From Candidatus Woesebacteria bacterium (lineage in GTDB: Bacteria > Patescibacteriota > Microgenomatia > UBA8517): a DNA stretch of 46,433 bases. Shown in pieces: positions 5,487 through 32,225 of this stretch. Location: the NCBI GenBank assembly GCA_020060565.1, contig JAGVAE010000003.1:86072-132504 (forward strand), written 5' to 3'. The stretch's first letter is position 1, and every line of letters starts with the position of its first letter. The notes under the pieces were generated by a model. The model had not been told where the DNA came from. It saw only the letters and a program-made list of their open reading frames with translations, and searched no databases. Position numbers and translations under genes: made by a program.

Positions 5487-5492
5487 TATACT

Positions 5493-7370
5493 ATGTCAAT
5501 GAAACTTAGGATCTCCCTTTTAATTTTTACACTTTTAACTTTTATTTTTTATCTTTTTCCTCCTACTACACGGGCTGATGAAGCTTTTGCGGTTGATGCT
5601 AACGTCACTTACAAGGTTGAGGATAATGGCAAAACTATTGTTACTCATGACATAACACTTGAGAATTTATTTTCCACCCTCTACGCCACAACCTACACTC
5701 TTTCCCTTGAAAATATTGGGGCCCAAAACATATCATCTGCAAACGACACTGGTGAGATAGTTCAAGTAGAAACAACTCAAGATGGTTCAAGACTAAATCT
5801 AAAATTACTATTTAAAGACAATGTTGTTGGCCGCGGTTCAAAACGCCATTTTAAAATCTCATACGAAAACAGTGGTTTTGCAACCAAGACAGGTGAAGTT
5901 TGGGAGATTTCTATTCCAAGGCTTTCTGAAGATTCATCATATAGGAACTACCAGGTAACCCTTCTTGTTCCCAATTCTTTTGGACAAGAAGCTTACATTT
6001 CCCCACAGCCACTACTATCGAATAATATTGAGGGTTTTAAAAGCTACACCTTCTCAAAAGAAAATATAAATACAACAGGTGTAACTGCAGGATTTGGAGA
6101 ATTTCAGGTCTTTTCATTTAGTCTTGCATATCATTTAGAAAATCCACTAGCTATTAATTCCCAAACAGAAATTGCCTTGCCTCCCGATACAGCATTTCAA
6201 AAAGTATATTTCAGTAAACTTGAGCCCAAACCATCTGAGGTTAAAATAGATGGTGATGGCAATTGGCTAGCCATTTATAAACTAACTCCACGCCAGAGAA
6301 TAGATGTAGATGTAGTAGGATCGGTTCAGATATTCGCCAGCTATCGTCATTTTCCAAGACCATCTCAGGAGATAATAGACAGAAATTTAAAGGCGACTAC
6401 TTATTGGCAATCAGATTCTGAAAAAATTAAACTATTAGCAGCTAGTCTCAAAACCCCGCAAGCTATATATGATTTTGTCTCAACAAACCTAAAATATGAT
6501 ACTTTTAGAGTAAAGCCAAATATTCAAAGAATTGGAGCCATTGCAGCTCTTGAAAACCCCACCCAAGCTATTTGTATGGAGTTTACCGATCTATTCATTG
6601 CTATTGCACGAGCAGCAGGAATTCCAGCCCGAGAAATTAATGGCTATGCCTATACTGAAAATAAAGAACTTCAACCACTTTCATTGGTAAATGATGTTCT
6701 TCATGCCTGGCCCGAATATTATGACAAAGACAAGGGGACCTGGATACCAATTGATCCCACCTGGGGGTCAACAAGTGGAGTAGATTTTTTTAATAAATTA
6801 GATTTAAGACATTTTACTTTTGTAATACACGGGATACACGATAAAGAACCCTATCCTCCTGGGTCATACAAATTAGGTTCCAATCCACAAAAAGACGTCT
6901 ATGTTTCTTTTGGGCAGCTCCCCGAAGAAAGAAATAGTACACCTGAAATCAAAGTATCAATTATTCGTAACATTCCTTTTATGGATACCATATATGATAT
7001 TAAGGTCGAAAATCCAGGCCCAGCATCTCTGGATAACCTATATCCAACAGTTTATTTTGATGGCAAAGAACATATGCGAGAATTTGTTCAGCTCCTGCCT
7101 CCATTTGCTATCCACCACTTTCAGGTAAAGGTTCCTTTTAGTATTCTAGGAAAAAATACCCCAGACAGCATAAAAATAACTGCAGATAGGGCCGAGGCAG
7201 ATCTTTCTACCAATAAAGTTCAGGTCGTCACCAATAGTTTACTTGTACTTTCAGCCCTTCTTATCATTGTAGTCATCATCGTTCTTGTAAAACTTAAAAA
7301 GTTAAAATTAACCAAAATTATGGGTATAATAGCGTCTACGTATGCAAAAATTATCAGAAAACCTTCCTGA
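5493..7370 (+). CDS. Membrane-anchored transglutaminase-like domain protein
   Basis: It has an N-terminal signal/TM segment (LLIFTLLTFIFYLF) and a C-terminal TM segment (LLVLSALLIIVVIIVLV). The transglutaminase core is present: Cys in AICMEFTDLFIAIARAAGIPAREINGYAY, then HAWPEYY and WIPIDPTW (the Cys-His-Asp arrangement). Confidence 0.8.
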   Translation: MSMKLRISLLIFTLLTFIFYLFPPTTRADEAFAVDANVTYKVEDNGKTIVTHDITLENLFSTLYATTYTLSLENIGAQNISSANDTGEIVQVETTQDGSRLNLKLLFKDNVVGRGSKRHFKISYENSGFATKTGEVWEISIPRLSEDSSYRNYQVTLLVPNSFGQEAYISPQPLLSNNIEGFKSYTFSKENINTTGVTAGFGEFQVFSFSLAYHLENPLAINSQTEIALPPDTAFQKVYFSKLEPKPSEVKIDGDGNWLAIYKLTPRQRIDVDVVGSVQIFASYRHFPRPSQEIIDRNLKATTYWQSDSEKIKLLAASLKTPQAIYDFVSTNLKYDTFRVKPNIQRIGAIAALENPTQAICMEFTDLFIAIARAAGIPAREINGYAYTENKELQPLSLVNDVLHAWPEYYDKDKGTWIPIDPTWGSTSGVDFFNKLDLRHFTFVIHGIHDKEPYPPGSYKLGSNPQKDVYVSFGQLPEERNSTPEIKVSIIRNIPFMDTIYDIKVENPGPASLDNLYPTVYFDGKEHMREFVQLLPPFAIHHFQVKVPFSILGKNTPDSIKITADRAEADLSTNKVQVVTNSLLVLSALLIIVVIIVLVKLKKLKLTKIMGIIASTYAKIIRKPS

Positions 7371-8598
7371 GACCGCTGGAGTTTATTTTTTCTACAAAAA
7401 TTCAAAAGTTATATATATAGGCAAGGCAATCAATCTTAAGCGTAGAGTTTCTTCATATTTTGATTTGGATCTAGAGAGTAAAACCGCCAGAATGATTAAG
7501 GAGGCCACACGCCTTAGTTTTATTAAAGTTGATTCAGAACTTGAAGCCTTACTTTTGGAGGCGAAACTCATAAGGTCCTATATGCCTCACTACAATGTTA
7601 TTTCAAAAGATGATAAACACCCACTTTATATAACAATAACAAAAGATAAATTTCCAAGGATAATAACAACCAGGAAGGATGGGACTTACGGTCCTTTTCC
7701 TTCATCAAGAACTGTTTACGCGGTATTACGAATGCTGCGAAAGATTTTTCCTTTTTCAGATCATAAAATTGGGAGAAGACCTTGTCTTTATTCTCATATA
7801 GGGCTTTGCAACCCCTGTCCCAATGAAATATCCAATAACCAAGATCCAATAATTAAGCAATATCAAATCAAAAAATATAAATCTAATATCAAAAACCTTA
7901 AATTAATCTTAGATGGCAAAATAGATAAAGTAACCAAAGAACTTGAGAAAGAAATGAACAGTTTTTCAAAAATAGAAAACTTTGAAAATGCAGCTCTTGT
8001 ACGCAATCAACTAACCAATCTTAAATACATTACAAGACCACAAATGCCTACTGAATTTTATATACAAAACCCCAACCTATATGAAGATCAAAGAAAATTA
8101 GAAATTAAAGAATTAGAAAAATTGATTAAAAATTATAAATTAAAAATTAATAATTTAGTTCGTATTGAGTGTTTTGACATTGCCCATCTTGCAGGTACAT
8201 ATGCCACAGCCTCAATGATAACTTTTGTTGGTGGTGAAGCTGACAAAAATTACTACAGACATTTTAAAATTAAAAAAGCAAAAAGGGGAGACGATTACGA
8301 TTCAATGAGGGAAGTAGCCAAAAGACGAGCTCTTCATTTTAACGATTGGGGGATTCCAGATCTCATAATAGTAGATGGGGGAGTTGGACAAGTTTCTGCA
8401 TTTAAAGACAAAATAGGAGGAATACTTGTTGTTGGAATTGTTAAAAACCCTGATAAGTTAATTGTTAACGACAAAAAAATAAAACTGGAAGGACCTGTAC
8501 TTAACTTAGTTTCTCGAATGCGCGACGAAGCCCACAGATTTGCCAGACGTTATCATCATAAACTAATAAGTAAAGAGATAACTAATTACTCCAAATAG
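7342..8598 (+). CDS. uvrC: Excinuclease ABC subunit C (UvrC), short form lacking the C-terminal (HhH)2 domain
   Basis: It has the GIY-YIG N-terminus (LPETAGVYFFYKNSKVIYIGKAINLKRRVSSY), a UVR helix (FENAALVRNQLTNLKY) and the RNase-H-like endonuclease domain (IECFDIAHLAGT..., IIVDGGVGQV, RDEAHRFA). The protein ends right after that domain at 418 aa. The start overlaps the upstream gene by 29 nt. Confidence 0.85.
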   Translation: MQKLSENLPETAGVYFFYKNSKVIYIGKAINLKRRVSSYFDLDLESKTARMIKEATRLSFIKVDSELEALLLEAKLIRSYMPHYNVISKDDKHPLYITITKDKFPRIITTRKDGTYGPFPSSRTVYAVLRMLRKIFPFSDHKIGRRPCLYSHIGLCNPCPNEISNNQDPIIKQYQIKKYKSNIKNLKLILDGKIDKVTKELEKEMNSFSKIENFENAALVRNQLTNLKYITRPQMPTEFYIQNPNLYEDQRKLEIKELEKLIKNYKLKINNLVRIECFDIAHLAGTYATASMITFVGGEADKNYYRHFKIKKAKRGDDYDSMREVAKRRALHFNDWGIPDLIIVDGGVGQVSAFKDKIGGILVVGIVKNPDKLIVNDKKIKLEGPVLNLVSRMRDEAHRFARRYHHKLISKEITNYSK

Positions 8599-13728: not shown

Positions 13729-14634
13729 ATGTTAATTGATCGTGCAGAGATTACTGTTCGTGGGGGTCATGGTGGGGCTGGTATGCCCAATAAACTTAAG
13801 GGTCCAGATGGGGGAAATGGTGGGGCAGGAGGAGATGTCTATATTAAAACTTCATCCAATATCAATCTTCTTAATCAGTTTAGTGAGAAAGATACTTTTG
13901 TTGCAGAAAATGGTCAGATGGGCGCACGTGGCAACAAAACTGGCAAAGATGGGCGCGACCTTGAAATACTTCTTCCTGTGGGAACTGGTGTATACGATAA
14001 GAAAACTAGGGAATTAATTGTGGAAGTTAACAAAGTTAACGAACGAATATTAATTTGCAAAGGAGGAAAAGGGGGATGGGGAGGAGAAACCGCAGAGTTG
14101 GGAGAGCGTGGTGAGGAAAAAAGACTTATTCTTTCACTCCGTTTAATTGCAGACTTTGGACTTATTGGTTTACCCAATGCAGGGAAAAGCAGTCTTTTAA
14201 ATGAATTGACTAATGCCAAAGCAATCACAGCAGATTATCCCTTTACTACACTTGAACCAAACCTGGGAGTATTTGAAGAAAAAACTATTGCAGACATTCC
14301 AGGACTTATTGAGGGAGCCTCAGGTGGACGTGGACTTGGTATAGCATTCTTAAAGCACATTGAGAAAGTTACAACACTTCTTCATTGCATTTCGTTAGAA
14401 ACAAAAGACGCACTCAGGGATTATAAAACAGTTAGAAAGGAATTATCAGATTTTAAACCCGAGCTTACAAAAAAGCCTGAAATTATAATCCTCACAAAAA
14501 CAGATATGGTGGATGCTGAAACTATACAAAAGCTTATAAAAACACTAAATAATAAAGCTAAAAATATCATTTCTGTTTCTATTCACGACTTTCCAAGTTT
14601 AGAGGATCTTAAAAAGGTATTACGAAAAATTTGA
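13729..14634 (+). CDS. obg: GTPase Obg (short form, 301 aa)
   Basis: It has the Gly-rich Obg fold (RGGHGGAGMPNKLKGPDGGNGGAGGDVYI) followed by a G domain (GLPNAGKSSLL, DIPGLIEGAS, TKTD). Confidence 0.9.
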   Translation: MLIDRAEITVRGGHGGAGMPNKLKGPDGGNGGAGGDVYIKTSSNINLLNQFSEKDTFVAENGQMGARGNKTGKDGRDLEILLPVGTGVYDKKTRELIVEVNKVNERILICKGGKGGWGGETAELGERGEEKRLILSLRLIADFGLIGLPNAGKSSLLNELTNAKAITADYPFTTLEPNLGVFEEKTIADIPGLIEGASGGRGLGIAFLKHIEKVTTLLHCISLETKDALRDYKTVRKELSDFKPELTKKPEIIILTKTDMVDAETIQKLIKTLNNKAKNIISVSIHDFPSLEDLKKVLRKI

Positions 14635-18377: not shown

Positions 18378-19466
18378 ATGCTAACAATTGACGAACAGAT
18401 AGAACAAATTGAGGAAGTTTTAAGGAAAACTCCACACCATAAAGCCACAAATGGATTCATTGGAGCTATGAGAGCCAAGATTGCCAGATTGAGGGACAAA
18501 CAAATGGACGGTGGCGCCCTTCTTCGCCAAGGCTCCGGCGGACAAGGAGGATTTACTGTTAAAAAACAAGGAGATGCAACAGTTGTACTGGTTGGACCAC
18601 CATCAGCTGGGAAATCCACACTTATTAACCAACTAACAAATGCAGAATCAAAGGTGGCCCCATATGCTTTTACAACTGTTACGGTAGTTCCTGGAATGCT
18701 CAAGCATAATGAAGCCTACATCCAAATATTAGACATTCCTGGTCTTATTGAAGGAGCAAAGGAGGGAAAGGGAAGGGGACGGGAGGTTTTGTCAGTTGCC
18801 AAAGGAGCAGATCTTCTCGTAATTATGACTGATGTTAAACGGGTTAGTGCATTTGCCTCCATGGTTAAGGAATTAGACGGCGCAGGAATTAGAATCAACG
18901 AGGAGCCTCCCAAGGTTTTAATTGAAAAAAAAATAAGTGGAGGACTTGAAGTCTTTTCTAATTTTAAGCAACCCATAGATAAAGAAACCATCAAAGAAAT
19001 TGCCCGTGAATTCGGAATAAAGAATGGAACAATTACTCTTCAAGAAAGGATCAGCCAAAAACGTCTTTTTGACGCCTTTTCTCCCAATCGTGTTTATGTT
19101 CCCGCAATATTTGTAATAAACAAAATAGATATGGAGCCAAATTATAAGCAAATGATAGACGGTGATTTTGTTGCTATAAGCGCAGATAATAAAATGGGGG
19201 TGGATACTTTAATTGATGAGATTTGGAAGGCCTTAAAATTTGTTACAGTATACTTAGTTAAACCTGATATTGAACCTGATTTTAGCGACCCAATCGTTAT
19301 GAAAAATGGTGAAACATTGCGTGACGTTTCTATCAAAATTGGTTCAGACTTTGCAAGTAGCAAGAAACTAGTTAAAATTTGGGGGACGACTGCAAAGTTC
19401 CCTGGACAAGAAGTGTCTTTTGACACTAAAGTTGTTGAAGGAATGCAAATAAGATTTCTTTCTTAA
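18378..19466 (+). CDS. DRG/Rbg-type OBG-family GTPase with C-terminal TGS domain
   Basis: The N-terminal helix (IEQIEEVLRKTPHHKATNGFIGAMRAKIARLRDK) is followed by a G domain (LVGPPSAGKSTLINQLT, FTTVTVVPG, ILDIPGLIEGAKEGKGRGREVLSVAKGADL). The C-terminal TGS region reads LVKIWGTTAKFPGQEVSFDTKVVEGMQI. This layout and motif wording match DRG proteins of archaea and eukaryotes. Confidence 0.8.
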   Translation: MLTIDEQIEQIEEVLRKTPHHKATNGFIGAMRAKIARLRDKQMDGGALLRQGSGGQGGFTVKKQGDATVVLVGPPSAGKSTLINQLTNAESKVAPYAFTTVTVVPGMLKHNEAYIQILDIPGLIEGAKEGKGRGREVLSVAKGADLLVIMTDVKRVSAFASMVKELDGAGIRINEEPPKVLIEKKISGGLEVFSNFKQPIDKETIKEIAREFGIKNGTITLQERISQKRLFDAFSPNRVYVPAIFVINKIDMEPNYKQMIDGDFVAISADNKMGVDTLIDEIWKALKFVTVYLVKPDIEPDFSDPIVMKNGETLRDVSIKIGSDFASSKKLVKIWGTTAKFPGQEVSFDTKVVEGMQIRFLS

Positions 19467-21282: not shown

Positions 21283-21843
21283 TTACTCGTCTTTTGATTC
21301 TAATTTACCCATTTTTTCTTCTATTAGCATTCTGAGGTATCGTGATTTTGACATATTTTTCCTTTTGCTTTCAATTTCTAAATAATTATTAATTTCTCTC
21401 GTTGATATAAAATTAAACTTGGCAAATTTCCGTGTTAGTAATTTATCAAGATTAATTTTTAGCTTGCCCGTAAGGTTTGTCTCATTGTAGCTAACAATAT
21501 TCAGTAATTCTGATTCCGTACCCAAAGTAAACCTGGAGGGTTCCTTGGCATTTTCGTTGACTAAAGCTATTACAGGTACTTTGTTATTTATTGAATAAGC
21601 TATTTGTTGACCGACTCCTGTCGAAGGGGTGCTTATTTCAGCGACTAAGACATCCGCACTTTTTATAGCCTTTATTGCTTCATCGAAGACCTGCTGTGGA
21701 GAAAGTATTTTTTTATCCTGAAGCCAATTGAACAAAATTTTCCCCCCTGCTAATTCAATGCAGTCAACAATTTTCCGATACAAATCAAAACTCTGGTTGT
21801 ACAAAGATGATGCAGAAAAATACACATTTACCTTTTTGCCCAT
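21283..21843 (-). CDS. Fusion protein: nucleoside 2-deoxyribosyltransferase-like (NDT/Rossmann-like) domain + C-terminal ribbon-helix-helix (CopG-like) DNA-binding domain
   Basis: The N-terminal domain reads KVNVYFSASS...SADVLVAEISTPSTGVGQQIAYSINNKVPVIALV, the NDT-like pattern, but with Gln where the catalytic Glu is expected. The C-terminal part (KFNFISTREINNYLEIESKRKNMSKSRYLRMLIEEKM) fits the strand-helix-turn-helix of RHH regulators. Confidence 0.6.
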   Translation of the reverse strand: MGKKVNVYFSASSLYNQSFDLYRKIVDCIELAGGKILFNWLQDKKILSPQQVFDEAIKAIKSADVLVAEISTPSTGVGQQIAYSINNKVPVIALVNENAKEPSRFTLGTESELLNIVSYNETNLTGKLKINLDKLLTRKFAKFNFISTREINNYLEIESKRKNMSKSRYLRMLIEEKMGKLESKDE

Positions 21844-21848
21844 ACATA

Positions 21849-21897
21849 ATTATATCATGGCGCCATCGTTGCGCCATAGTTAAAAACGTACTATAAT
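21849..21897. promoter_or_regulatory. Divergent promoter/operator region: two TATAAT boxes flanking the perfect palindrome ATGGCGC-N7-GCGCCAT
   Basis: The palindrome is at 21857-21877. A plus-strand TATAAT at 21892-21897 lies 6 nt before the ATG at 21904. A minus-strand TATAAT at 21854-21849 lies 5 nt before the ATG at 21843. No Shine-Dalgarno can fit on either side. Confidence 0.45.
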
Positions 21898-21903
21898 CCA
21901 GAC

Positions 21904-22509
21904 ATGATATTTATAGCTGGACCACATGACGCTGGAAAAACAACTATCGCCAGTTATTTGAGGGATTTCGGTTTTTTGCATATTGAAACCAGCACTATTG
22001 TAAAAGCTAAGCATAAAGAGATGGCTCCAGATACAAATTTTGGTGAGTGGGCAATTGGACAAAACCATTGTTTTGACAAATATATCGCACAAGCCGTTGT
22101 GAAGATCGAACAAGCGATAAAAAGGTCGAATGGAAGATATCAAGATATTGTTGTTACAGGAAACAGGCAGATTGGTGGAATCAATTATCTTATTAATGAA
22201 ATTCCACCCTTAAGACAAAACTTAATAATTTATGTTGAAGCTGACGAACTCACACTCTTTAATCGCCATATGAGTAGACCTGACGGAGCTATCCAAGGGC
22301 TGACCTTACAAAGATTTAGAGACGAGGTATTAGCATACGATCAAAAAATGGGGGTAGAAAAGATTAAAGAGGCTGCTGACATTGTCATTTGTAATAATGG
22401 TGAAGTTTACTCTTGTTTGGAAACAGTATTCTCATTTTTACAATCGAGAGGATATGTCTTTCCAAATTCAAATATCGAAGGTAATCGTAGAGGAAGAGAG
22501 ATTGAATAA
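21904..22509 (+). CDS. P-loop nucleotide/nucleoside kinase-like protein (NMP-kinase fold, UPF0200/dephospho-CoA-kinase-like)
   Basis: It has a Walker A motif at the extreme N-terminus (MIFIAGPHDAGKTTIASYL). VVTGNRQ, IIYVEAD...LFNRHMSRPDG and ADIVICNNGEV fit small archaeal-type nucleotide kinases. It is the first gene of the coupled operon. Confidence 0.6.
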   Translation: MIFIAGPHDAGKTTIASYLRDFGFLHIETSTIVKAKHKEMAPDTNFGEWAIGQNHCFDKYIAQAVVKIEQAIKRSNGRYQDIVVTGNRQIGGINYLINEIPPLRQNLIIYVEADELTLFNRHMSRPDGAIQGLTLQRFRDEVLAYDQKMGVEKIKEAADIVICNNGEVYSCLETVFSFLQSRGYVFPNSNIEGNRRGREIE

Positions 22510-22510
22510 T

Positions 22511-23629
22511 ATGAGTAATCCTGCAAAAACTGAGCTAACAGTCCCCTGCCATTGGAACAAACCTGTCATGGACCAGATTTTGCGTCAAAACGACACAGCA
22601 ACTACCAAAGTTGCTGAAGTGTATGGTGTTTTAGCTGATGGTGGGCCCGTTGGACATGGTAGATCATCAGATGCCGTTGTTAATGTTGCACGACAAGAAG
22701 CTATAGATTTTAGAAATCATCTTAGAGATTCTGGAATAAGATTTACATATCTTTTGAATGCGCCGTTTAAATTTAAAGATGACGCTAACCAATTAAAGGA
22801 TCTTAATGCATATTTGGGCTGGGTATTAGGAGAATTAAAACCTGACGCACTAACCATATCATCATACGAATTAATGAAACATGTCAGAACGATAGATAGA
22901 GACATTTCGATACATGTGTCCACTATTGCAGGTGTAAAGAACGTTAGAGACCTGCAGAATTACATGGACGCCAGACCAGATGGGGTGGTTCCTCATCACG
23001 ACGTTGGTAAAAACTGGAAAGATCTTGCTGAACTTACTTCTTTTGGAAAAACAAATGGGATTAAAACCGAACTACTTGTAACCGAAAGTTGTTTATATCA
23101 ATGTCCTTCAAGAGTAGCTCATTATGAACACCTGGCTCGCGGAATGGCCGACTCTCCATTTCATCTTGTTTGTAACGCAAGAAAATTTATTAACCCTTCT
23201 GAATTTCTGTTGGCAGGTGGTGTTATCAGACCAGAAGATCAATCAATGTTTAAAGAATTAGGAGTTAACTGCCTTAAAATTTCAGGAAGGTCAAAGCCCG
23301 CAGAATGGTTACCCGAAACTGTTGGAGCATACCAAAGAGGAAGTTATGATGGCAATTTGATACGTCTTTTAGGAATTGACCCATCTTTAAGGGCTGAAGA
23401 GTGGTTTTATATTGACAATAAGGCTTTATATGGATTTATGAGTGATTTTCCATCAAATCATAGTGATGAAAAAAGAAGAAAATATTGTGAACAATGGGCT
23501 TTAAAACTTCATAGTGAAGGTAAATTAATTGTAAAAGATGGTTCCAAATACGATGAAGTTGAAGGAAATCTAAGACTGCAAGAAGGTGGAAATTGTATAG
23601 CCCCAATAATTAGAAGGGAAATTGGATAA
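22511..23629 (+). CDS. Peptidase-U32-family protein (family of UbiU/UbiV, TrhP, RlhA)
   Basis: The ATG lies 1 nt after the kinase stop; the ORF-track start at 22382 is an upstream extension inside the kinase gene. U32-like segments are TELLVTESCLYQCPSRVAHY (the Cys-rich signature region) and LGVNCLKISGRSK (compare KIEGR). Cys residues occur at PCHW, CLYQC and LVCN. Confidence 0.6.
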   Translation: MSNPAKTELTVPCHWNKPVMDQILRQNDTATTKVAEVYGVLADGGPVGHGRSSDAVVNVARQEAIDFRNHLRDSGIRFTYLLNAPFKFKDDANQLKDLNAYLGWVLGELKPDALTISSYELMKHVRTIDRDISIHVSTIAGVKNVRDLQNYMDARPDGVVPHHDVGKNWKDLAELTSFGKTNGIKTELLVTESCLYQCPSRVAHYEHLARGMADSPFHLVCNARKFINPSEFLLAGGVIRPEDQSMFKELGVNCLKISGRSKPAEWLPETVGAYQRGSYDGNLIRLLGIDPSLRAEEWFYIDNKALYGFMSDFPSNHSDEKRRKYCEQWALKLHSEGKLIVKDGSKYDEVEGNLRLQEGGNCIAPIIRREIG

Positions 23630-23631
23630 TT

Positions 23632-24408
23632 ATGAATATAGAAACTTTAGGTGAAATACACGAGATTGATCACAATTGGACGGTAATTGCGGGGCCTTGT
23701 GCTGCTGAATCTGAAGAGCAAATTGTCCAATCCAGTAGGATGGTTGCAAAAAGTGGAGCGCAAGTCCTACGAGCAGGTTTGTGGAAGCCAAGGACAGATC
23801 CTGACTCATGGCAAGGAGCGGGAGAAAAAGCGTTAGAGTGGATGAAAGAAGCCAAGAGACAAACGGGGATAGCCATAACAACTGAAGCAAACAGTACTAG
23901 CACTATTGAAGCAACATTAAAGGCTGAATTTGATATTCTCTGGGTTGGCTCAAGAAATTCAACTTATTTTCCATTATTAGACGAGATTGGAAAGCAAACC
24001 TCAGAAAAACAAGTTCCAGTTATTTTAAAACGAGGTATGGGGTCAGAGTTAGATGAATGGTTAGGTGCAGCAGATTATATAAGGAGACATAACCCAAATG
24101 TAATCCTGTGTGAGAGAGGCATCAAGGGATTTAATAAATGCACAAGAAATACTTTAGATTTACAGACCGCAAAGCTGGCCCAAATTGAATCAGGTCTACC
24201 AGTAATTATTGATGTAAGTCATGCTGCTGGTAGAAGAGATTTAATATTGCCGATGGCATTGGCAGTCAAAGCTGCTGGATTTAATGGTTTAATGATCGAA
24301 ACTCATCCAAAGCCAGATCTTGCGATGACAGATTCCAAGCAGCAAATCTCTTTAGAAAATTTTGAAAATCTTATGGATAAATTGAAAACAATTCCCAACC
24401 AAATATGA
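23632..24408 (+). CDS. 3-deoxy-7-phosphoheptulonate (DAHP) synthase class I-beta / KDO8P-synthase family PEP aldolase
   Basis: It shows near-collinear motif matches to I-beta DAHPS: VIAGPCAAES, LWKPRTDPDSWQG, VGSRN, ILKRGMG, ILCERGIKGF, IIDVSHAAGRR, MIETHPKPDLAMTDS. All four metal ligands (Cys, His, Glu, Asp) are present. Confidence 0.8.
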   Translation: MNIETLGEIHEIDHNWTVIAGPCAAESEEQIVQSSRMVAKSGAQVLRAGLWKPRTDPDSWQGAGEKALEWMKEAKRQTGIAITTEANSTSTIEATLKAEFDILWVGSRNSTYFPLLDEIGKQTSEKQVPVILKRGMGSELDEWLGAADYIRRHNPNVILCERGIKGFNKCTRNTLDLQTAKLAQIESGLPVIIDVSHAAGRRDLILPMALAVKAAGFNGLMIETHPKPDLAMTDSKQQISLENFENLMDKLKTIPNQI

Positions 24409-25418
24409 ACCAAGATTATTTAAAAGCATCAAGAGATTCCGATAAACGTGGCAAACATGATTATTGTATGTCAAGTAATTATGATGAGAAATTAGTAAGA
24501 TTTTTCCCAAAAATATCTAATAAGGAAATTTATAATTTATCAGCGAATTATCCAACACAGACATATGAAGATTTAAAAAGATCGATTCAAAAATTGTTTA
24601 AAATTAAAAACGTAATTCTTTCGGCTGGTTGTGAAGATCTTATTATTAAAATTTGTAAATCGATTAGTAAAAGCAAATATCAATTAGGGGTTGTCATACC
24701 AACCTTTTATCGTATAACTGATAATCTTCATAAATTCACACCAATAGATTGGAATAATATTGAGAATACAGACTATAAGAGATTTGACTACGTCTTTATT
24801 GTAAACCCAAATGCACTAAACGGCCAAAACCTTTCTAAGAAAATCATCTTAAATATTATTAAACAAAATCCTAATACAATTTTTATTATTGATGAAACAT
24901 CAATTTTATTTTTAGAAAATTGGAAACAAATATCTTTAACAAGTGAAATAAATAAGAATAATAATTTGTTAATTATTACATCGTTAGGTAAATTTTTCGG
25001 TCTTTCTGGACAACGAATTGGATTTGCAACTGGTCTCCCAGAACTTTTAACTAGGTTGCAACTTGGTCAAGAAACCTTTCCGATCTCAAACATAAGTGCC
25101 TTCATTGTAAATAATATTATCTCAAACAGTTCTTTTGCAAAAATTGTAAGACAAAGAATATTAAAGAATAAGGGTGAAATTTTTAAACTGCTTGAAAAAA
25201 GCAAAAAAATTGGTTTAATGCCATCATTAAACAATTGTATATATTGCTTTTCAAAACATGGATTTGAATTGCATAAAATTCTTGATAGGGTAGGAATTTT
25301 TGGTTTAGATCTTGACTGCCAAAAAGGAATTACGCAAAAAGGCCTAGTACGTTTGACCATACACGGTTCACCCACTAAACATAAATTTCTTATTGAAAAA
25401 CTAAAGTTAATTAAATAA
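24405..25418 (+). CDS. PLP-dependent aminotransferase class I/II (HisC / CobD-like)
   Basis: The ATGA overlap with the upstream stop indicates coupling. Motifs: VNPNALNGQ (compare NPNNPTG), IIDETSILF, and ITSLGKFFGLSGQRIGF with the PLP lysine. Confidence 0.7.
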   Translation: MNQDYLKASRDSDKRGKHDYCMSSNYDEKLVRFFPKISNKEIYNLSANYPTQTYEDLKRSIQKLFKIKNVILSAGCEDLIIKICKSISKSKYQLGVVIPTFYRITDNLHKFTPIDWNNIENTDYKRFDYVFIVNPNALNGQNLSKKIILNIIKQNPNTIFIIDETSILFLENWKQISLTSEINKNNNLLIITSLGKFFGLSGQRIGFATGLPELLTRLQLGQETFPISNISAFIVNNIISNSSFAKIVRQRILKNKGEIFKLLEKSKKIGLMPSLNNCIYCFSKHGFELHKILDRVGIFGLDLDCQKGITQKGLVRLTIHGSPTKHKFLIEKLKLIK

Positions 25419-25420
25419 AG

Positions 25421-26500
25421 ATGACTAAACAAATATTTAAAAAATTTAAACCAGGAACAATATTTAATCCACTCAATGGCAAATATTTCGTTTCTAAAAA
25501 ATATAAGCTAGTCAAATTAAGATTTCCTAGCAGGTTGAATGCTATGGCCATCGACCCATCAAAAATTACCTCAAACGAAAACATGATTTTTACCCCAGGT
25601 GAGGTTGTGTTTTCAGTTAAGATTTATATAAATATTTTAGTAAAGTTAGTAAAAGAGAATAATAAAATCGAAATTTCTAACGAATCGTGTCGTAAACCAT
25701 TAATTATCCACGCGGCAAAATTAATTCAGAAGGCGCTGAAAGTTAATGATGGATTATTTATATCAATAGACAACAAGAACGAACTAAAACACTCTGGACT
25801 TGGAAGCAGTGGTGCTTTAATCGCAGGAGTTACTTCATCAATAAATGAACTTTATGGTAAACCTATTCCAAATAGAAAATTAGTTGAATATGTTGCACAA
25901 AACCATGGGGAAGAAATTGAGTCAGATGATTCTCATATTCAACAAGTGCAATGTATTGGTGGCTCTGCGTCTTCAGGTAACATTAAAGGGGGGTTAATTG
26001 TAATCGCTGGTAAAAGCAAAGTAATATCAACTATGAAAGTGCCAAAAGAATACAAAGTTGTTATTGGAATTCCTGATGACTATAAACCGCTTGATTCAGA
26101 AAAGATGATGGGGCTTGAAGAGAGGAATCTGGACAAGTTTTTATATACAGGTAAGCATTACGGCGGTGAAATCGCGTACAGAATGTTGCATGAAGCGATA
26201 CCTGGAATGTTTGATCAAAACCTTATACCAATGGGTAATTTGATTTTTGACTACCGTTTTAAAATGGGAAGCATCAAAAATTGCTCATTTTCATATCCCA
26301 AGATGAATCTGATTGCCAAAAAGATTGCGCATCTCAAAAATAATACAGACACACCTGTACTATCCCTCTCTTCTGTTGGACCTGCCTTTTTTGCAATTAC
26401 AAGTAATACTAAAAAAGTGGTTAGAGAATTTGAGGCAAATAATATGAGAACCATTATCACAGAAATAGAAAATGGGATGTATAAGGTGATTAAAAACTGA
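25421..26500 (+). CDS. GHMP-kinase-fold protein of the beta-ribofuranosylaminobenzene-5'-phosphate (beta-RFAP) synthase family
   Basis: Motifs: LRFPSRLNAMAIDP (compare PSRLHFGLID), HSGLGSSGALIAGV (GHMP motif II), IGGSASSGNIKGGLIVIAG and SLSSVGPAFFAI (compare GQSSWGPT). They occur in the same order as in archaeal RFAP synthase, as I recall it. Confidence 0.55.
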   Translation: MTKQIFKKFKPGTIFNPLNGKYFVSKKYKLVKLRFPSRLNAMAIDPSKITSNENMIFTPGEVVFSVKIYINILVKLVKENNKIEISNESCRKPLIIHAAKLIQKALKVNDGLFISIDNKNELKHSGLGSSGALIAGVTSSINELYGKPIPNRKLVEYVAQNHGEEIESDDSHIQQVQCIGGSASSGNIKGGLIVIAGKSKVISTMKVPKEYKVVIGIPDDYKPLDSEKMMGLEERNLDKFLYTGKHYGGEIAYRMLHEAIPGMFDQNLIPMGNLIFDYRFKMGSIKNCSFSYPKMNLIAKKIAHLKNNTDTPVLSLSSVGPAFFAITSNTKKVVREFEANNMRTIITEIENGMYKVIKN

Positions 26501-26501
26501 A

Positions 26502-27155
26502 TTGATTAATACAAGTATAAAGTTCTGGAATAGCAAAAAAATAATTACTGAGTTCAAAGATGCTCAGGTACAAAATTATTGGGTAGATTTTTTTGCACCA
26601 ATTAAAAATAAAGATAAAAAAACAGTTTTGGATTTTGGCTGTGGTGGTGGACGCTATACAGAAATGCTTGCAAGAATGGGTTTTAAGACATTTGCGTTTG
26701 ATTTACATCGAGGTATGGTCAACATAACTTTACAAAAGATTAAAAATCTAGAGTTAAACGCAACGATTGTTCAAGCAGAAATGATTCAAATTCCATTTGA
26801 GACCAACAAGTTTGATATTATTTTATCCAATGGTGTGTTGCACAATGCCAAATCTTTAAATGAATTAAAAAAAGCATTGTCTGAAATTGTTCGCATAATT
26901 AAACCCAATAGAACTCTTTGTTTGAATATGTTCTACGATGGAGGAAATAATTCGCAATTAACAAAAAATGAAGAAAAATATATATTTGCCACAAAAGATA
27001 AACTACCAATGATTCTTTTACCGATAGATGATCTTAAAAAATTGTTGTTAAAGTATGGATTCAAAGAGATTGGAAAAGTAATTACCTACACACGAGATAT
27101 GGAAGTAGGAACAAGAGATGTTATGAGGGGTGTGTTCAAACTAATTAATCCTTAG
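26502..27155 (+). CDS. Class I SAM-dependent methyltransferase
   Basis: The TTG start lies 1 nt after the upstream TGA. Motifs: VLDFGCGGGRYT (motif I), FDL (acidic loop), FDIILSNGVLHN, IIKPNRTL. Confidence 0.75.
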   Translation: MINTSIKFWNSKKIITEFKDAQVQNYWVDFFAPIKNKDKKTVLDFGCGGGRYTEMLARMGFKTFAFDLHRGMVNITLQKIKNLELNATIVQAEMIQIPFETNKFDIILSNGVLHNAKSLNELKKALSEIVRIIKPNRTLCLNMFYDGGNNSQLTKNEEKYIFATKDKLPMILLPIDDLKKLLLKYGFKEIGKVITYTRDMEVGTRDVMRGVFKLINP

Positions 27156-27696
27156 AAAGTTCTTCGGCGATTCTTACATAGTTCTTATTCCAGCTATCTA
27201 ATCTTTCCACTTCCGGATATTCTGTAAAGGCTCTCTCTTCTCCTTCAAGACAAATAACTCCATTCCAACCACCTCTAGGATCTTTAACAACTTCCTCCTT
27301 TTTAAAGTGGATTGGCACTTGATATGAGTACTCCAAAACTCTTCCTTTTGGATCCGCATAAACTGTGCTTATTTCAAAATACCCAGATCTATCACCATAT
27401 AAATCTAAAATTCTAAAAAGCTTTTCGAGAGATAGTTTTTTCTCAATAAAAGCCATGTATGGCCCTGGAAACCCTAAAGCATTTATGAATAGGCTATGAT
27501 CCTCTCTAATCACTGGTAAGTTTGTAGCTTTAGTGGCTTCGAGAGCTGTGTGCTTTGCAATTTCCAGGCTCGTATCCGCTTGGATCTCTGGAAATTCCTG
27601 ATCAGTATTTTTAAGTTCGATTCCGTATTTGTCGAATACTCTTTTCGCCGCCATTATTTTACCTTGATTTTTTGTTATTAGATAAACACCTTTCAT
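27145..27696 (-). CDS. Non-canonical purine NTP pyrophosphatase (Ham1/RdgB/ITPase family)
   Basis: Motifs: ITKNQGK, FPEIQADT, AKHTALEA, IREDHSLFINALGFPGPYMA. It converges on the methyltransferase gene and overlaps it by 11 nt. Confidence 0.8.
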   Translation of the reverse strand: MKGVYLITKNQGKIMAAKRVFDKYGIELKNTDQEFPEIQADTSLEIAKHTALEATKATNLPVIREDHSLFINALGFPGPYMAFIEKKLSLEKLFRILDLYGDRSGYFEISTVYADPKGRVLEYSYQVPIHFKKEEVVKDPRGGWNGVICLEGEERAFTEYPEVERLDSWNKNYVRIAEELSKD

Positions 27697-27699
27697 TTT

Positions 27700-28173
27700 T
27701 TAAAAATCTCCAGGCTCTATATCTAATATGTTAACATGAATCTTATCAGATTTGCCCACCTTAACTTCTACCGTCTCGTCTTTAGATCTTCCGTTTATAG
27801 ATATACCTAATGGGCTTAATGTAGATACAATTATTCCATTAAGGTCTTTTCTTCTAACAACGTCATCCTGACCTAATAAATATACTGTTTCTTCTGAGTC
27901 CTCTTCGACGAATCTTATTTTAATCTTATTTCCTATCCCAACGACATCCGTTTCTATTCTAGGAATTATTATCTTAGCTTCAGCCAAATCGCCAACCATT
28001 ACACGCTCAGCTAAAGTTTGGTTTTTAAGAAGTTCAAACCCTGCATCGTCATGGTAACTTGATCGTGCATGCCCCCCATCGGATTGACTACCCATTTCAG
28101 CTATTTGTCTATCAAGCTCTGCTTGTAGCGAGTTTAGAATTGACAATGTCTTTCCTGTCATCAGTCTTTCCAT
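27700..28173 (-). CDS. GreA/GreB-family transcription factor-like protein
   Basis: It has an N-terminal helical region with SYHDDAGFELLKNQ (compare ENAEYHAAKEEQ). The C-terminal domain reads VGIGNKIKIRF...VYLLGQDD...IVSTLSPLGISINGRSKDETVEVKV. It lies 3 nt upstream of the Ham1 gene on the same strand. Confidence 0.65.
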   Translation of the reverse strand: MERLMTGKTLSILNSLQAELDRQIAEMGSQSDGGHARSSYHDDAGFELLKNQTLAERVMVGDLAEAKIIIPRIETDVVGIGNKIKIRFVEEDSEETVYLLGQDDVVRRKDLNGIIVSTLSPLGISINGRSKDETVEVKVGKSDKIHVNILDIEPGDF

Positions 28174-29685: not shown

Positions 29686-29722
29686 CTAAACAAATTGTAA
29701 CAGATTACATCTACAAAAATTG

Positions 29723-29794
29723 TGCCCTTGGAGGGAATCGAACCTTCATCTCCTCCTTAGAAGGGAGATGCTCTATCCATTGAGCTACAAGGGC
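29723..29794 (-). tRNA. tRNA-Arg (anticodon TCT)
   Basis: Cloverleaf: GCCCTTG acceptor, TCTCC-CTTCTAA-GGAGG anticodon arm, GAAGG-TTCGATT-CCCTC T arm (one A:C mismatch). Confidence 0.82.
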
Positions 29795-29800
29795 TTACAG

Positions 29801-29872
29801 AGCGGCGGAGCGGATTTGAACCGCCGACCTCTTCCTTGGCAAGGAAGCATTCTACCACTGAACTACCGCCGC
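29801..29872 (-). tRNA. tRNA-Gly (anticodon GCC)
   Basis: Cloverleaf: GCGGCGG acceptor, CTTCC-TTGCCAA-GGAAG anticodon arm, GGCGG-TTCAAAT-CCGCT T arm, discriminator U. Confidence 0.9.
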
Positions 29873-29890
29873 ATAATTATGAATTTCCAG

Positions 29891-29963
29891 TGCTGGGTCT
29901 CAGAGTCGAACTGAAATATGACGCTCTTCAGGCGCCCGCCTTGACCACCTTGGCTAACCCAGC
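29891..29963 (-). tRNA. tRNA-Phe (anticodon GAA), unusual D arm
   Basis: Cloverleaf: GCTGGGT acceptor, GGCGC-CTGAAGA-GCGTC anticodon arm, TTCAG-TTCGACT-CTGAG T arm. The D arm has a 3-bp stem and an 11-nt loop (GCC-AAGGTGGTCAA-GGC), as in type II tRNAs, but the variable loop is short. Confidence 0.75.
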
Positions 29964-30389
29964 TCATTTACTATATGTTCTAATTCTGTGACAATTTGAG
30001 CATACAATATCGCATTTTTTTATTTCTTCTTCAATTTTTTCCTTTGCCCAACCACCTACTATCATTGTAGCAATATCGTGTTCTTTTTTGGTTCCATCTC
30101 TATGATCGAAATCCATAACATATGTTGGATATCTTTTGCCACAATCTGCACAGGGTCTATCTTTTATCTTTGCCAAATAGGCTCTCATTTTATTTTTTGC
30201 TTTATTCCTTCTCAAAATCGCTAGTTTTAACTGTCGTTTTTGATTGAGGTGATAATATAAACGTCCCCGAGTTTTCATGCAATCTTTGCATTTTTCATAA
30301 TATTTTCCTCTTCTTAATCCTTTCTTACGAAAATAGAAAGATTTTAATAGCTTTCTCTTATTACACTTAGAACATATTTTAAGGTTCAT
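29964..30389 (-). CDS. HNH endonuclease (stand-alone, 141 aa)
   Basis: It has N-terminal CxxC...CxxC Zn knuckles (CSKCNKRK, CKDC), CADCG, DFDHRDG (the HNH His) and CSNCHRIRT. The stop codon directly abuts the 5' end of tRNA-Phe. Confidence 0.8.
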   Translation of the reverse strand: MNLKICSKCNKRKLLKSFYFRKKGLRRGKYYEKCKDCMKTRGRLYYHLNQKRQLKLAILRRNKAKNKMRAYLAKIKDRPCADCGKRYPTYVMDFDHRDGTKKEHDIATMIVGGWAKEKIEEEIKKCDIVCSNCHRIRTYSK

Positions 30390-30440
30390 ACCTAAATCTA
30401 TACTAATGTATATCGAAATACAATAATATTTTTCAGGTAG

Positions 30441-30514
30441 TGGTCGCTGAGGGATTCGAACCCCCGACCTTCTCGATGTAAACGAGACGCTCTAACCAAC
30501 TGAGCCAAGCGACC
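30441..30514 (-). tRNA. tRNA-Val (anticodon TAC)
   Basis: Cloverleaf: GGTCGCT acceptor, TCTCG-TTTACAT-CGAGA anticodon arm, GGGGG-TTCGAAT-CCCTC T arm. Confidence 0.88.
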
Positions 30515-30538
30515 GCTTAAAACGCGGTAAACCAACTG

Positions 30539-30619
30539 TGCGCGGGACAGGAGTCGAACCTGCACACCTTGCGGTACATGTTCCTTAAACATGCGCGTAT
30601 GCCATTCCGCCACCCGCGC
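30539..30619 (-). tRNA. tRNA-Leu, anticodon reads AAG (type II)
   Basis: Cloverleaf: GCGCGGG acceptor, perfect 5-bp anticodon stem CATGT/ACATG closing the 7-nt loop TTAAGGA (U33, A34-A35-G36, G37), 13-nt variable arm, GCAGG-TTCGACT-CCTGT T arm. The anticodon corresponds to plus-strand 30584-30586. Confidence 0.75.
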
Positions 30620-30644
30620 TCATACACATATTTTTTGCAAAAGG

Positions 30645-30728
30645 TGCCGGGGGCGAGACTCGAACTCGCACGCTCTTGCGAGCACACGCTCCTGAAGCGT
30701 GCCTGTCTACCAATTTCAGCACCTCGGC
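30645..30728 (-). tRNA. tRNA-Leu (anticodon CAG), type II
   Basis: Cloverleaf: GCCGAGG acceptor (one A:C mismatch at 5:68), CACGC-TTCAGGA-GCGTG anticodon arm, 15-nt variable arm, GCGAG-TTCGAGT-CTCGC T arm. Confidence 0.82.
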
Positions 30729-31466: not shown

Positions 31467-32225
31467 ATGAGCGCTGCATATGATTCGTTTGATTATCCGG
31501 GTTATTGGATAGGCCGAGAATATGAGCACAAATCAGAAATAATAGCTTTAAAAGCTTTTCTTCAAAGAATTAAAAGGATAAAAAAAATTTTGGAGGTTGG
31601 AGCAGGATATGGACGGCTTATACCTTCATATGCATTTCGTGCTAAAAGTGTTATTTTATCCGATCCTTCAGCTAAAGCACTCAAAATTGCAAGGGAAGCT
31701 TTTAGATACAAAAAAAATATCAAATATTTACACTCATCATTAGAAAATCTTCCTTCTAAAATTAGACCGTATTCTGTTGACTTGATAATAATGGTGCGAG
31801 TAATTCACCACATAAAAGATATTAATACGACTTTTAAGATTGTTCATAGATTATTAACACCAAACGGTTATTTTATATTTGAATTTGCTAATAAAAAACA
31901 TGGTAAAGCCAGTTTAAAAGCATTTCTTGGAGGTAATTATTCGTTTTTAAACGATAAAGCCACCAAGGATATAAGAAGTCAAACATCTATCAAAAGGGGT
32001 ACTCTCCCTTTTCTTAATTATCACCCTGATAAAATTAAGGAGATTTTAGATAACTATGGATTTGAGGTTGTCGAAAAAAGATCTGTTAGTAATATAAGAA
32101 GTTGCTTTTTAAAAAAGTGGTTTTCTACAGACCTTCTTGTATATATGGAGACAATACTTCAGAAGCCACTTTCATATATCGATTTTGGGCCCTCAATATT
32201 TATTCTTGTTAAGAAAAGGGGATAA
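31467..32225 (+). CDS. Class I SAM-dependent methyltransferase
   Basis: Motifs: ILEVGAGYGRLIPSY (motif I), ILSDPS, VDLIIMVRVIHH, LLTPNGYFIFEF. Confidence 0.75.
   Translation: MSAAYDSFDYPGYWIGREYEHKSEIIALKAFLQRIKRIKKILEVGAGYGRLIPSYAFRAKSVILSDPSAKALKIAREAFRYKKNIKYLHSSLENLPSKIRPYSVDLIIMVRVIHHIKDINTTFKIVHRLLTPNGYFIFEFANKKHGKASLKAFLGGNYSFLNDKATKDIRSQTSIKRGTLPFLNYHPDKIKEILDNYGFEVVEKRSVSNIRSCFLKKWFSTDLLVYMETILQKPLSYIDFGPSIFILVKKRG

Follow-up and report, generated by a model that had tools for sequence, protein, structure and literature searches.

The stretch of DNA analysed here, referred to below as the window, comprises 46,433 nucleotides of a contig from a Candidatus Woesebacteria bacterium, and the subject of this report is a group of closely packed genes within it, together with their direct neighbours. 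The names of homologous proteins place the source organism in the Patescibacteria, or candidate phyla radiation (CPR). Six plus-strand open reading frames (ORFs) lie between positions 21904 and 27155, with coordinates and spacings identical to those given in a first-pass annotation of the same DNA. The features of the locus are listed below, the six genes being named g1 to g6 (NDT, nucleoside deoxyribosyltransferase; DAHP, 3-deoxy-D-arabino-heptulosonate 7-phosphate; PLP, pyridoxal phosphate; SAM, S-adenosylmethionine).

21283-21843, minus strand: g0, NDT/DNPH1-like protein, upstream of g1
21854-21875: operator-like tandem repeat ATCATGGCGCC / ATCGTTGCGCC with the palindrome ATGGCGCCAT, found by repeat search within the 60-nt spacer of the divergent genes g0 and g1, which is a promoter region
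21904-22509, plus strand: g1, P-loop kinase-like protein; junction to g2, +1 nt
22511-23629, plus strand: g2, U32 protein; junction to g3, +2 nt
23632-24408, plus strand: g3, DAHP synthase; junction to g4, -4 nt (ATGA)
24405-25418, plus strand: g4, PLP enzyme of the aminotransferase type; junction to g5, +2 nt
25421-26500, plus strand: g5, GHMP-fold protein; junction to g6, +1 nt
26502-27155, plus strand: g6, SAM methyltransferase, with a TTG start and an 11-nt overlap with g7 on the opposite strand
27145-27696, minus strand: g7, Ham1-like protein, downstream of g6
27700-28173, minus strand: g8, small GreA/Rnk-like protein, after g7

The view that the six genes form a single operon is supported, and consensus scans for internal promoters and terminators gave no significant signal and no excess within it. 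The start of g2 is ambiguous: the ORF can be extended upstream to TTG 22382, and the public gene call (P0001) has 391 aa; alignment with 26 homologues favours ATG 22511. All six family assignments made in the first-pass annotation hold, at family level, in Pfam and NCBIfam scans.

Next, the neighbourhoods of U32, GHMP and DAHP synthase homologues were compared, which yielded about 20 distinct, independent loci (numbered with an L below; individual proteins carry a P). The first-pass annotation had taken the six genes as the functional unit and had proposed to look for their co-occurrence in other genomes. Co-occurrence was found across the Patescibacteria, but as a five-gene core and not as the six. 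This core, consisting of the U32 protein, a kinase resembling nucleoside monophosphate (NMP) kinases, the GHMP protein, the methyltransferase and the Ham1-like protein, recurs as a set in about 20 independent loci of Patescibacteria. Among the other genes, that of DAHP synthase is accessory and that of the aminotransferase replaceable, while the Ham1 gene, previously regarded as a mere flank, belongs to the conserved core. We conclude that the six packed genes are one version of a larger cluster conserved across ultra-small Patescibacteria.

The loci come from Saccharibacteria, Paceibacterota, Jorgensen-, Zambryski- and Shapirobacteria, plus two metagenome-assembled genomes (MAGs) labelled archaeal; for some short MAG contigs, the assignment to archaea, Bacillota or Bacteroidales may reflect faulty binning. 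Orders and orientations of the core genes vary among loci, the order aminotransferase-GHMP-methyltransferase being frequent. In L002, Ham1, kinase, GHMP and methyltransferase genes form one overlapping operon that faces a U32-aminotransferase pair, and in L027 the cluster is divided into U32-DAHP synthase-aminotransferase and PrnB-GHMP-methyltransferase groups. The core set stays together although identity to the window proteins drops to 43-57%. Recurrence of the same genes in some 20 independent loci shows that their association goes beyond chance. Moreover, several of the genes are fused in relatives: a kinase-U32 protein (P0095), GHMP-methyltransferase proteins of about 570 aa (at least 10 representatives), PrnB-like-GHMP proteins (P0362, P0363) and a GHMP-racemase protein (P0426). 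These fusions support a functional coupling. A metagenome scan with DAHP synthase as query gave 5 loci only.

The U32 protein g2 passed the cutoff of Pfam PF01136 (Peptidase_U32, 36.9 bits for a cutoff of 22.4), and the best PDB match of its AlphaFold model (predicted local distance difference test, pLDDT, 91) was the U32 protein Mk0906 (5d88, E 3.4e-9). Cysteines C194, C198 and C221 are invariant among 27 sequences, and C13 is nearly so; these four would be the ligands of a 4Fe-4S cluster. The protein is distant from TrhP, RlhA, UbiU and UbiV: its score with the TrhP equivalog model was 18.4 bits, below the cutoff of 534, and weak matches to TrhP and to UbiU were found in 17 and 3 of the 27 family members, respectively. 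Nearly all of its 323 homologues belong to Patescibacteria. U32 proteins are established as O2-independent hydroxylases of aromatic and heteroaromatic rings, with prephenate as the source of the oxygen and phenylpyruvate as the released by-product (PMC10990095). By analogy, g2 is a divergent Fe-S U32 protein and a putative prephenate-dependent, O2-independent hydroxylase. Circumstantial indications of prephenate use are the chorismate mutase gene that adjoins the cluster in L024 and L018, and the presence of DAHP synthase in the subclade of the window.

The GHMP-fold protein g5 belongs to the branch of beta-RFAP synthase and ForT, by its top structural match, transitive homology and shared motifs, and the earlier likening of this protein to beta-RFAP synthase is thereby supported. 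Its model (pLDDT 92) had ForT as top PDB match (E 3.5e-16, template modelling (TM) score 0.67). The ForT entries 8aoz and 6yqq ranked first and fourth, a third ForT entry ranked second, and ForT came ahead of all true kinases, by a small margin. A profile search of 1.84 billion proteins retrieved only 309 representative relatives of g5. Ten of the most distant ones were tested, and beta-RFAP synthase was the best NCBIfam match in nine of them (51-106 bits); in those nine outgroup proteins it scored above ThrB, several of the alignments covering nearly the full length of the model. From a joint alignment, the motifs P-x-R-(L/I/V)-(N/H)-x4-D (in the first strand), H-x-G-L-G-S, N-x-x-E-E, SSVGP and (D/E)-N-x-G were found to be common to the whole branch. 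Taken alone, g5 reached the cutoff of neither NF040726 (34.7 bits, cutoff 328) nor TIGR00144 (27.4 bits, cutoff 113.5); its best NCBIfam match was homoserine kinase (43 bits), and it scored equally weakly with ThrB and beta-RFAP models.

Residues R38, D45, H124 and E233 are invariant in the g5 family. Judged by motif spacing, R38 matches R19 of ForT and D45 matches D26, the arginine and aspartate being 7 apart in both proteins; by motif spacing only, H124 with its GLGSS matches the H99 loop of ForT, and E233 matches E211. The beta1 arginine, the aspartate and the HxGLGS loop are also conserved in the RFAP-like outgroup, as seen in a multiple alignment. ForT R19 is essential for PRPP (phosphoribosyl pyrophosphate) binding (PMC8183095), and H99 and the essential E211 are described in PMC9832568. 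In RFAP synthase, R26, in the loop G-R-x-GGGG, is implicated in binding of para-aminobenzoic acid (PMC6787355). Because this loop is replaced in g5 and an equivalent of ForT R135 is not evident, we regard g5 as a distinct subfamily of the beta-RFAP/ForT branch. It is a putative PRPP-dependent (C-)ribosyl-phosphate transferase.

The first gene, g1, present in nearly every locus, encodes a P-loop protein (Pfam AAA_17/AAA_18). The profile of its family matched AK9 (3e-19), SSO1041 of the UPF0200/AdkA-like type over its full length (7e-14), and UMP/CMP kinases; from these similarities, g1 is predicted to be a P-loop kinase of NMP-kinase fold, of the phosphomonoester kinase type. A shikimate kinase was considered and rejected: SKI was matched by 3 of 18 family members, and adenylate kinases, UMP/CMP kinases and UPF0200 were far better matches. 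The last gene, g6, is a generic class I SAM methyltransferase of the UbiE/UbiG/BioC type (Pfam Methyltransf_11/25/31 and Ubie_methyltran, all NCBIfam matches being below cutoffs). A second class I methyltransferase (31467-32225, plus strand, 252 aa, Methyltransf_11/23) is encoded 4 kb downstream of the cluster, and additional methyltransferases flank the cluster in L001, L002, L004 and L027.

The Ham1-like gene g7 lies within or beside the cluster in every locus whose contig is long enough, at varying positions and orientations. It passed Pfam PF01725 (Ham1p_like, 59.8 bits, cutoff 22.5) and did not reach the NCBIfam equivalog (93 versus 203 bits). Alignment to PH1917 revealed GWNG(L/V)I instead of FGYDPIF in the base pocket. 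The protein also carries WN(K/Q)xY where we would expect SHR, another base-pocket motif of ITPases. The product of g7 is a divergent Ham1/ITPase-like nucleoside triphosphate (NTP) pyrophosphatase subfamily and an integral member of the cluster, and its altered base pocket suits a non-standard substrate. The next gene, g8, has a GreA_GreB C-terminal domain (Pfam), NCBIfam models for GreA and for an NDK regulator both remaining below cutoffs. It adjoins the Ham1-like gene in L006, L021, L023, L024, L025 and L027; L007 has it too, on a contig that lacks a Ham1-like gene. We consider it a conserved neighbour of uncertain membership, which may be a housekeeping GreA.

The only cluster protein to pass a function-specific cutoff is g3, with 278.7 bits for TIGR01361 (cutoff 267.75). 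It has the KPRT motif and, as read from the translation, the metal ligands C23, H197, E223 and D234, in a spacing like that of the Pyrococcus furiosus enzyme. It is a class I-beta DAHP synthase lacking a regulatory domain. Its gene occurs in one subclade only, that of the window, in every case with the U32 gene on one side and the aminotransferase on the other, and always accompanied by g0. More distant members of this clade of short DAHP synthases are encoded in a trp operon or beside genes for dehydroquinate (DHQ) synthase, dehydroquinase and shikimate dehydrogenase, which indicates that some CPR do carry shikimate genes. Two such sites, L030 (4634-10756) and L031 (8289-10732), combine a DAHP synthase of the short clade with DHQ synthase and dehydroquinase, and in L030 also with shikimate dehydrogenase, within glycosyltransferase-rich regions of CPR-like contigs; these look like partial shikimate pathways serving purposes other than aromatic amino acids. 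In L007, a single ORF of 526 aa (3987-5567) consists of a DAHP synthase devoid of its last 60 residues or so, followed by the aminotransferase. As this may be a true fusion, a frameshift or a decaying gene, it was left out of the evidence.

The PLP enzyme g4 (Pfam Aminotran_1_2, PLP lysine motif SLGKFFGLSGQRIG) scored 114.7 bits with the NCBIfam model of CobD (cutoff 290.55) and 94.4 bits with that of HisC (cutoff 276.55), reaching neither. Its PDB sequence matches were HisC, CobD and a putative phenylalanine aminotransferase. It is probably a HisC/CobD-family enzyme acting as an aromatic or arylpyruvate aminotransferase, with a decarboxylase role as another possibility. The aminotransferase is present in 14 loci and an Asp/Glu-racemase-like gene in 5, the two being mutually exclusive. 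Other accessory genes were found in relatives. A chorismate mutase gene (CM_2) adjoins the cluster in L024, the closest relative, whose U32 protein is 83% identical; L018, a distant locus, has one independently. In L024 and L027, the GHMP gene is immediately preceded by a gene for a PrnB/TDO-like protein. Their positions are the following.

L024, 260-523 and 3426-4472: chorismate mutase and PrnB/TDO-like haem protein joining the cluster
L018, 4265-4570, minus strand: chorismate mutase
L027, 12984-14030, minus strand: PrnB/TDO-like haem protein

Upstream of the operon, the first-pass annotation had placed an NDT-like, nucleotide-related regulator as a flank. The regulator was retained, and it appears dedicated to such clusters, with a conserved operator motif. 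The score of g0 with Pfam Nuc_deoxyrib_tr was 20.2 bits, and that of its L006 orthologue 31.9 (cutoff 28.8). Its best PDB sequence matches were DNPH1/Rcl (E about 1e-3), and its C-terminus gave weak RHH_1/NikA-like matches, so that an NDT/DNPH1-like domain followed by a probable C-terminal ribbon-helix-helix can be proposed from sequence similarity. Orthologues are found in L006, L007, L021, L023, L025 and L027, always with DAHP synthase, and in L006 inside the operon. In L021, L023, L025, L007 and L006, the operon's first start codon is preceded by the arrangement ATGGCGCC-N2-3-ATGGCGCC, and this in turn by a TTGACA-N17-TAxxAT promoter; two TGGCGCCA palindromes are thus placed about one helical turn apart, downstream of a sigma-70-like promoter, in these same five loci:

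L021, about 7366-7385
L023, about 7352-7371
L025, about 2853-2872
L007, about 2247-2266
L006, about 1842-1861

The tandem palindrome is GC-rich within otherwise AT-rich DNA and heads DAHP synthase-type operons in six loci. Some gene calls translate it as 'MAP...' codons at the N-terminus of the kinase. The tandem ATGGCGCC palindrome is probably the operator of g0, with a nucleotide-like ligand, and g0 itself a putative nucleotide-sensing regulator dedicated to DAHP synthase-type clusters.

We then asked what such a cluster could make. Gene order, synteny, fusions, family and branch assignments and the conserved operator motif are observations; from these we infer all of the chemistry. Our preferred reading, a tentative one, is that the cluster produces a hydroxylated, methylated aromatic riboside phosphate by ribosylation from PRPP, a small, nucleotide-like molecule. 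In this scheme, g5 would couple an aromatic or heteroaromatic acid with PRPP. The acid would stem from aromatic amino acids or chorismate, an origin to which the aminotransferase or racemase, the PrnB-like protein, DAHP synthase and chorismate mutase all point. The U32 protein would hydroxylate the ring without O2, with prephenate as oxygen donor, as UbiU/UbiV, TrhP and RlhA do, and g6 would methylate the product. The kinase g1 would place a second phosphate onto the 5'-phosphate, and g7 would cut triphosphate forms back to the monophosphate, thereby controlling the pool of a nucleotide analogue or protecting the cell from it. DAHP synthase, in the subclade of the window, and chorismate mutase, in the closest relative, would raise the supply of shikimate precursors and prephenate, and the aminotransferase would handle an arylpyruvate and could recycle phenylpyruvate, the by-product of prephenate. 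Control would rest with g0, which would recognise a nucleotide-like ligand and attach to the tandem ATGGCGCC palindromes where the operon starts. Two themes run through the genes: an aromatic one among the accessory genes (DAHP synthase, chorismate mutase, PrnB-like protein, HisC-type aminotransferase with its phenylalanine aminotransferase match in the PDB), and a nucleotide one (the NMP-kinase fold of g1, the Ham1-like protein with its changed base pocket, the DNPH1-like sensor domain).

The first-pass annotation had likewise predicted a riboside- or nucleotide-like product, and this remains the best reading. It had the pathway open with condensation of phosphoenolpyruvate (PEP) to an aldol product, followed by transamination and ribosylation. 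Since DAHP synthase is missing from most clusters, these opening steps are unlikely to belong to the core chemistry. A role in supplying prephenate or aromatic precursors fits better, given chorismate mutase in two distant relatives and the prephenate dependence of U32 proteins.

Several observations weigh against the riboside phosphate reading. Apart from DAHP synthase, no enzyme attains a function-specific (equivalog) cutoff. ThrB models score as high on g5 as beta-RFAP models, which would allow an ATP-dependent kinase activity. A counterpart of ForT R135 is not evident, g5 having the stretch QNHGEE, where the RFAP-like outgroup shares NxxEE. The R26 loop of RFAP synthase is replaced by N52...(Y/F)TPGE throughout the g5 family, while the outgroup keeps G(R/K)xGGGG. 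The g5 family profile matched ForT only with an E value of about 2, and a C-terminal sub-profile gave no match to it. Prephenate requires a full shikimate pathway, and none was found among the Pfam-scanned ORFs of the window. The methyltransferase is apparently missing from L018 and L019. Finally, that the same phosphates should be handled by both a kinase and a pyrophosphatase requires an added assumption, that of pool control or self-protection.

Other explanations were weighed against the same evidence. It is unlikely that the cluster serves RNA modification, the U32 protein and the methyltransferase acting as TrhP and TrmR do to form a 5-hydroxy- and then a 5-methoxypyrimidine in tRNA or rRNA, next to kinase, GHMP and Ham1-like genes that would be housekeeping neighbours. 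Known pairs of U32 hydroxylase and methyltransferase do act on RNA (PMC6599085, PMC6158493), weak TrhP matches run through most of the U32 family (17 of 27 members), g6 has weak CmoB and CmoM matches and matches a PHROG 'tRNA methyltransferase' family, and a chorismate mutase gene beside the U32 gene suits any prephenate-dependent U32 enzyme. Yet the similarity of g2 to TrhP amounts to just 18 bits for a cutoff of 534, fusions repeatedly join methyltransferase to GHMP protein, and U32 protein to kinase, GHMP and NMP-kinase folds act on small molecules, the Ham1-like protein with its altered base-binding motifs moves with the cluster, and the cluster has a nucleotide-sensor-like regulator of its own. 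Less probable again is a supply of modified nucleotides, in which the Ham1-like protein would convert a canonical (deoxy)nucleoside triphosphate to the monophosphate, the U32 protein and methyltransferase would modify the base at that level, the kinase would rephosphorylate the modified form alone for use in RNA or DNA, and the GHMP protein would salvage the modified base with PRPP. Phage T4 follows the same logic with its dCTPase, dCMP hydroxymethylase and dNMP kinase, and all three enzyme types are core members here; the changed base-pocket motifs of the Ham1-like protein also speak for it, as does the sensor domain of g0, since DNPH1 is a hydrolase of deoxynucleoside monophosphates and of 5-hydroxymethyl-dUMP. 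Such a pathway, however, leaves the PrnB-GHMP fusions, the alternation of aminotransferase and racemase, and DAHP synthase unexplained. The cluster has no conserved polymerase or glycosylase, nor any other conserved partner with a link to DNA or RNA, and the core proteins have no PHROG or PADLOC link.

Quite improbable, in our estimate, is an amino-alcohol phosphate, made by g5 as a GHMP kinase of serine, threonine or homoserine (PduX/ThrB-like), g4 as a CobD-like decarboxylase and g6 as an N-methyltransferase, to yield a phosphocholine-like head group. The best NCBIfam match of g5 (homoserine kinase, 43 bits), that of g4 (CobD threonine-phosphate decarboxylase, 114.7 bits) and the frequent gene order aminotransferase-GHMP-methyltransferase would agree with this, but outgroup proteins and motifs place g5 in the ForT/RFAP branch and not with ThrB, g4 is missing or replaced in many clusters, and the U32, kinase and Ham1-like proteins and the PrnB fusions are given no role. 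A coincidental packing, with a remnant of aromatic amino acid synthesis (DAHP synthase and aminotransferase) beside unrelated housekeeping genes in a compact genome, was already disfavoured and is very improbable. CPR genomes are gene-dense and tight junctions are common in them, and DAHP synthase and HisC-type aminotransferases are classical neighbours in aro/trp operons, as in L032 and in the supraoperon of Bacillus subtilis. However, the core is kept together across lineages that are only 43-57% identical, despite rearrangement, four kinds of fusion protein exist, and DAHP synthase invariably lies between the U32 gene and the aminotransferase. A defence system and a phage origin were also considered and rejected: PADLOC gave nothing except a generic methyltransferase match, and the kinase, GHMP and Ham1-like proteins have no PHROG matches.

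The remainder of the window was examined as well. By Pfam, its other large ORFs belong to the usual housekeeping repertoire of bacteria (UvrA, UvrC, Obg, CTP synthase, trigger factor, BipA, BacA, DinB). Among ORFs of at least 90 aa, a Pfam scan found no further shikimate, quinone or pterin genes, in line with the first-pass annotation, which had seen no other shikimate, folate/methanopterin or quinone genes. The window encodes, in addition to the bacterial Obg, a DRG-type GTPase (MMR_HSR1 plus MMR_HSR1_Xtn), the two ORFs being at 18378-19466 and 13729-14634, both on the plus strand; proteins with this DRG-type pair of domains are typically archaeal or eukaryotic. Fifteen tRNA genes are present in the 46 kb, six of them in two triplets (29722-29963 and 30440-30728), between which lies a CxxC-rich, HNH-like ORF without Pfam match (29964-30389; region 29722-30728, minus strand). 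An Rfam search of the window at gathering thresholds gave tRNAs alone, and no riboswitch.

The by-eye remark that the aminotransferase and RFAP-like genes are richer in A/T and in Lys, Asn and Ile than the U32 and DAHP synthase genes agrees with the figures. GC contents are 0.274 for g4, 0.303 for g6, 0.336 for g5, 0.379 for g2 and 0.396 for g3 (18 other genes of the window, 0.364 +/- 0.022), and the Lys+Asn+Ile fraction is 0.33 in g4 and 0.29-0.33 over g4-g6, versus 0.17-0.20 in g2 and g3. The GC content of g4 is the lowest in the window, about 4 standard deviations under that of the other genes, and its protein, the least conserved of those next to the core, is 62% identical in the closest relative, where Ham1 and the remaining proteins of the operon reach 78-90% (the kinase being only partial there). 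These two properties of g4 could reflect relaxed constraint or a different history. A horizontal exchange of the low-GC g4-g6 module was not supported, identity patterns across loci being too flat.

Patescibacteria have very small genomes and few biosynthetic pathways. Retention of a five-to-nine-gene cluster across a radiation of small genomes therefore suggests that its metabolite is important for their lifestyle. A more specific proposal, which we regard as possible and rather on the unlikely side, is a dedicated pathway in these ultra-small episymbionts (CPR, with two MAGs labelled archaeal) for a new C-ribosylated, hydroxylated and methylated aromatic nucleotide. This would be either a soluble quinone- or nucleotide-like cofactor, in organisms devoid of membrane quinones, or a host-directed C-nucleotide antimetabolite or signal with Ham1-like self-protection. 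Were it true, the cluster would offer the first small-molecule, non-quinone substrate of a prephenate-dependent U32 hydroxylase, anaerobic hydroxylation of this type would extend past ubiquinone and RNA, PRPP-dependent C-ribosylation of the ForT/RFAP type would gain a third biological context, and a new cofactor or natural C-nucleotide would be added. The fusion proteins, the putative regulator and the conserved operator are experimentally testable handles.

Literature and database searches found no description of the cluster and matched no characterised pathway to it, as the first-pass annotation had supposed for this combination of genes. The likeness to O2-independent ubiquinone biosynthesis (UbiU/UbiV/UbiT and UbiG/UbiE, acting after UbiA) lies in an aromatic acid joined to a pyrophosphate-activated partner, followed by Fe-S U32 ring hydroxylation with prephenate and by UbiE/UbiG-type methylation, in a shikimate-dependent pathway (PMC10990095). 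The cluster differs in having no prenyltransferase and no UbiT/SCP2, UbiD or UbiX; the partner would be PRPP, used by the GHMP-fold enzyme, and the product would be soluble. Its U32 protein is of a separate subfamily, UbiU being weakly matched by 3 of 27 members. Patescibacteria, moreover, reportedly lack electron transport chains. The tRNA wobble systems TrhP with TrmR (mo5U) and TrhP with CmoA/CmoB (cmo5U), and RlhA (ho5C2501), share a prephenate-requiring U32 hydroxylase, followed by a SAM-dependent transferase, as well as a link to chorismate mutase and prephenate. Their substrate, however, is RNA, they have no GHMP, NMP-kinase or Ham1 partners or fusions, and their sequence similarity is marginal.

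The pairing of PduX (GHMP threonine kinase) with CobD (threonine-phosphate decarboxylase) resembles the cluster in that a GHMP-fold protein stands beside a CobD/HisC-family PLP enzyme, but here the GHMP protein is of the ForT/RFAP branch, clusters can lack the PLP enzyme or have another in its place, and a cobamide context is absent. With the hydroxymethyl-dCTP pathway of phage T4 (gp56 dCTPase, gp42, gp1 dNMP kinase), the cluster has in common an NTP pyrophosphatase, a base modifier and a dedicated NMP kinase; the enzyme families differ, and the cluster is cellular and has the GHMP enzyme and accessory genes of aromatic metabolism besides. The C-glycoside synthases ForT (formycin), PyfQ (pyrazofurin) and beta-RFAP/RHP synthase (methanopterin) are of the same GHMP branch as g5, which shares the beta1 arginine, HxGLGS loop, NxxEE and SSVGP with ForT and beta-RFAP synthase, and a nucleotide-like product is expected. 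In contrast to these enzymes, g5 is below the family cutoffs and has the R26 loop replaced. The partners in the cluster are entirely different, without Pur-like formycin enzymes or pterin enzymes, and the hosts are CPR bacteria instead of actinomycetes or methanogens. Each of the proposed steps would nevertheless have a known analogue, in UbiU/UbiV with UbiG, in TrhP with TrmR, in ForT/RFAP synthase and in the deoxynucleotide logic of T4.

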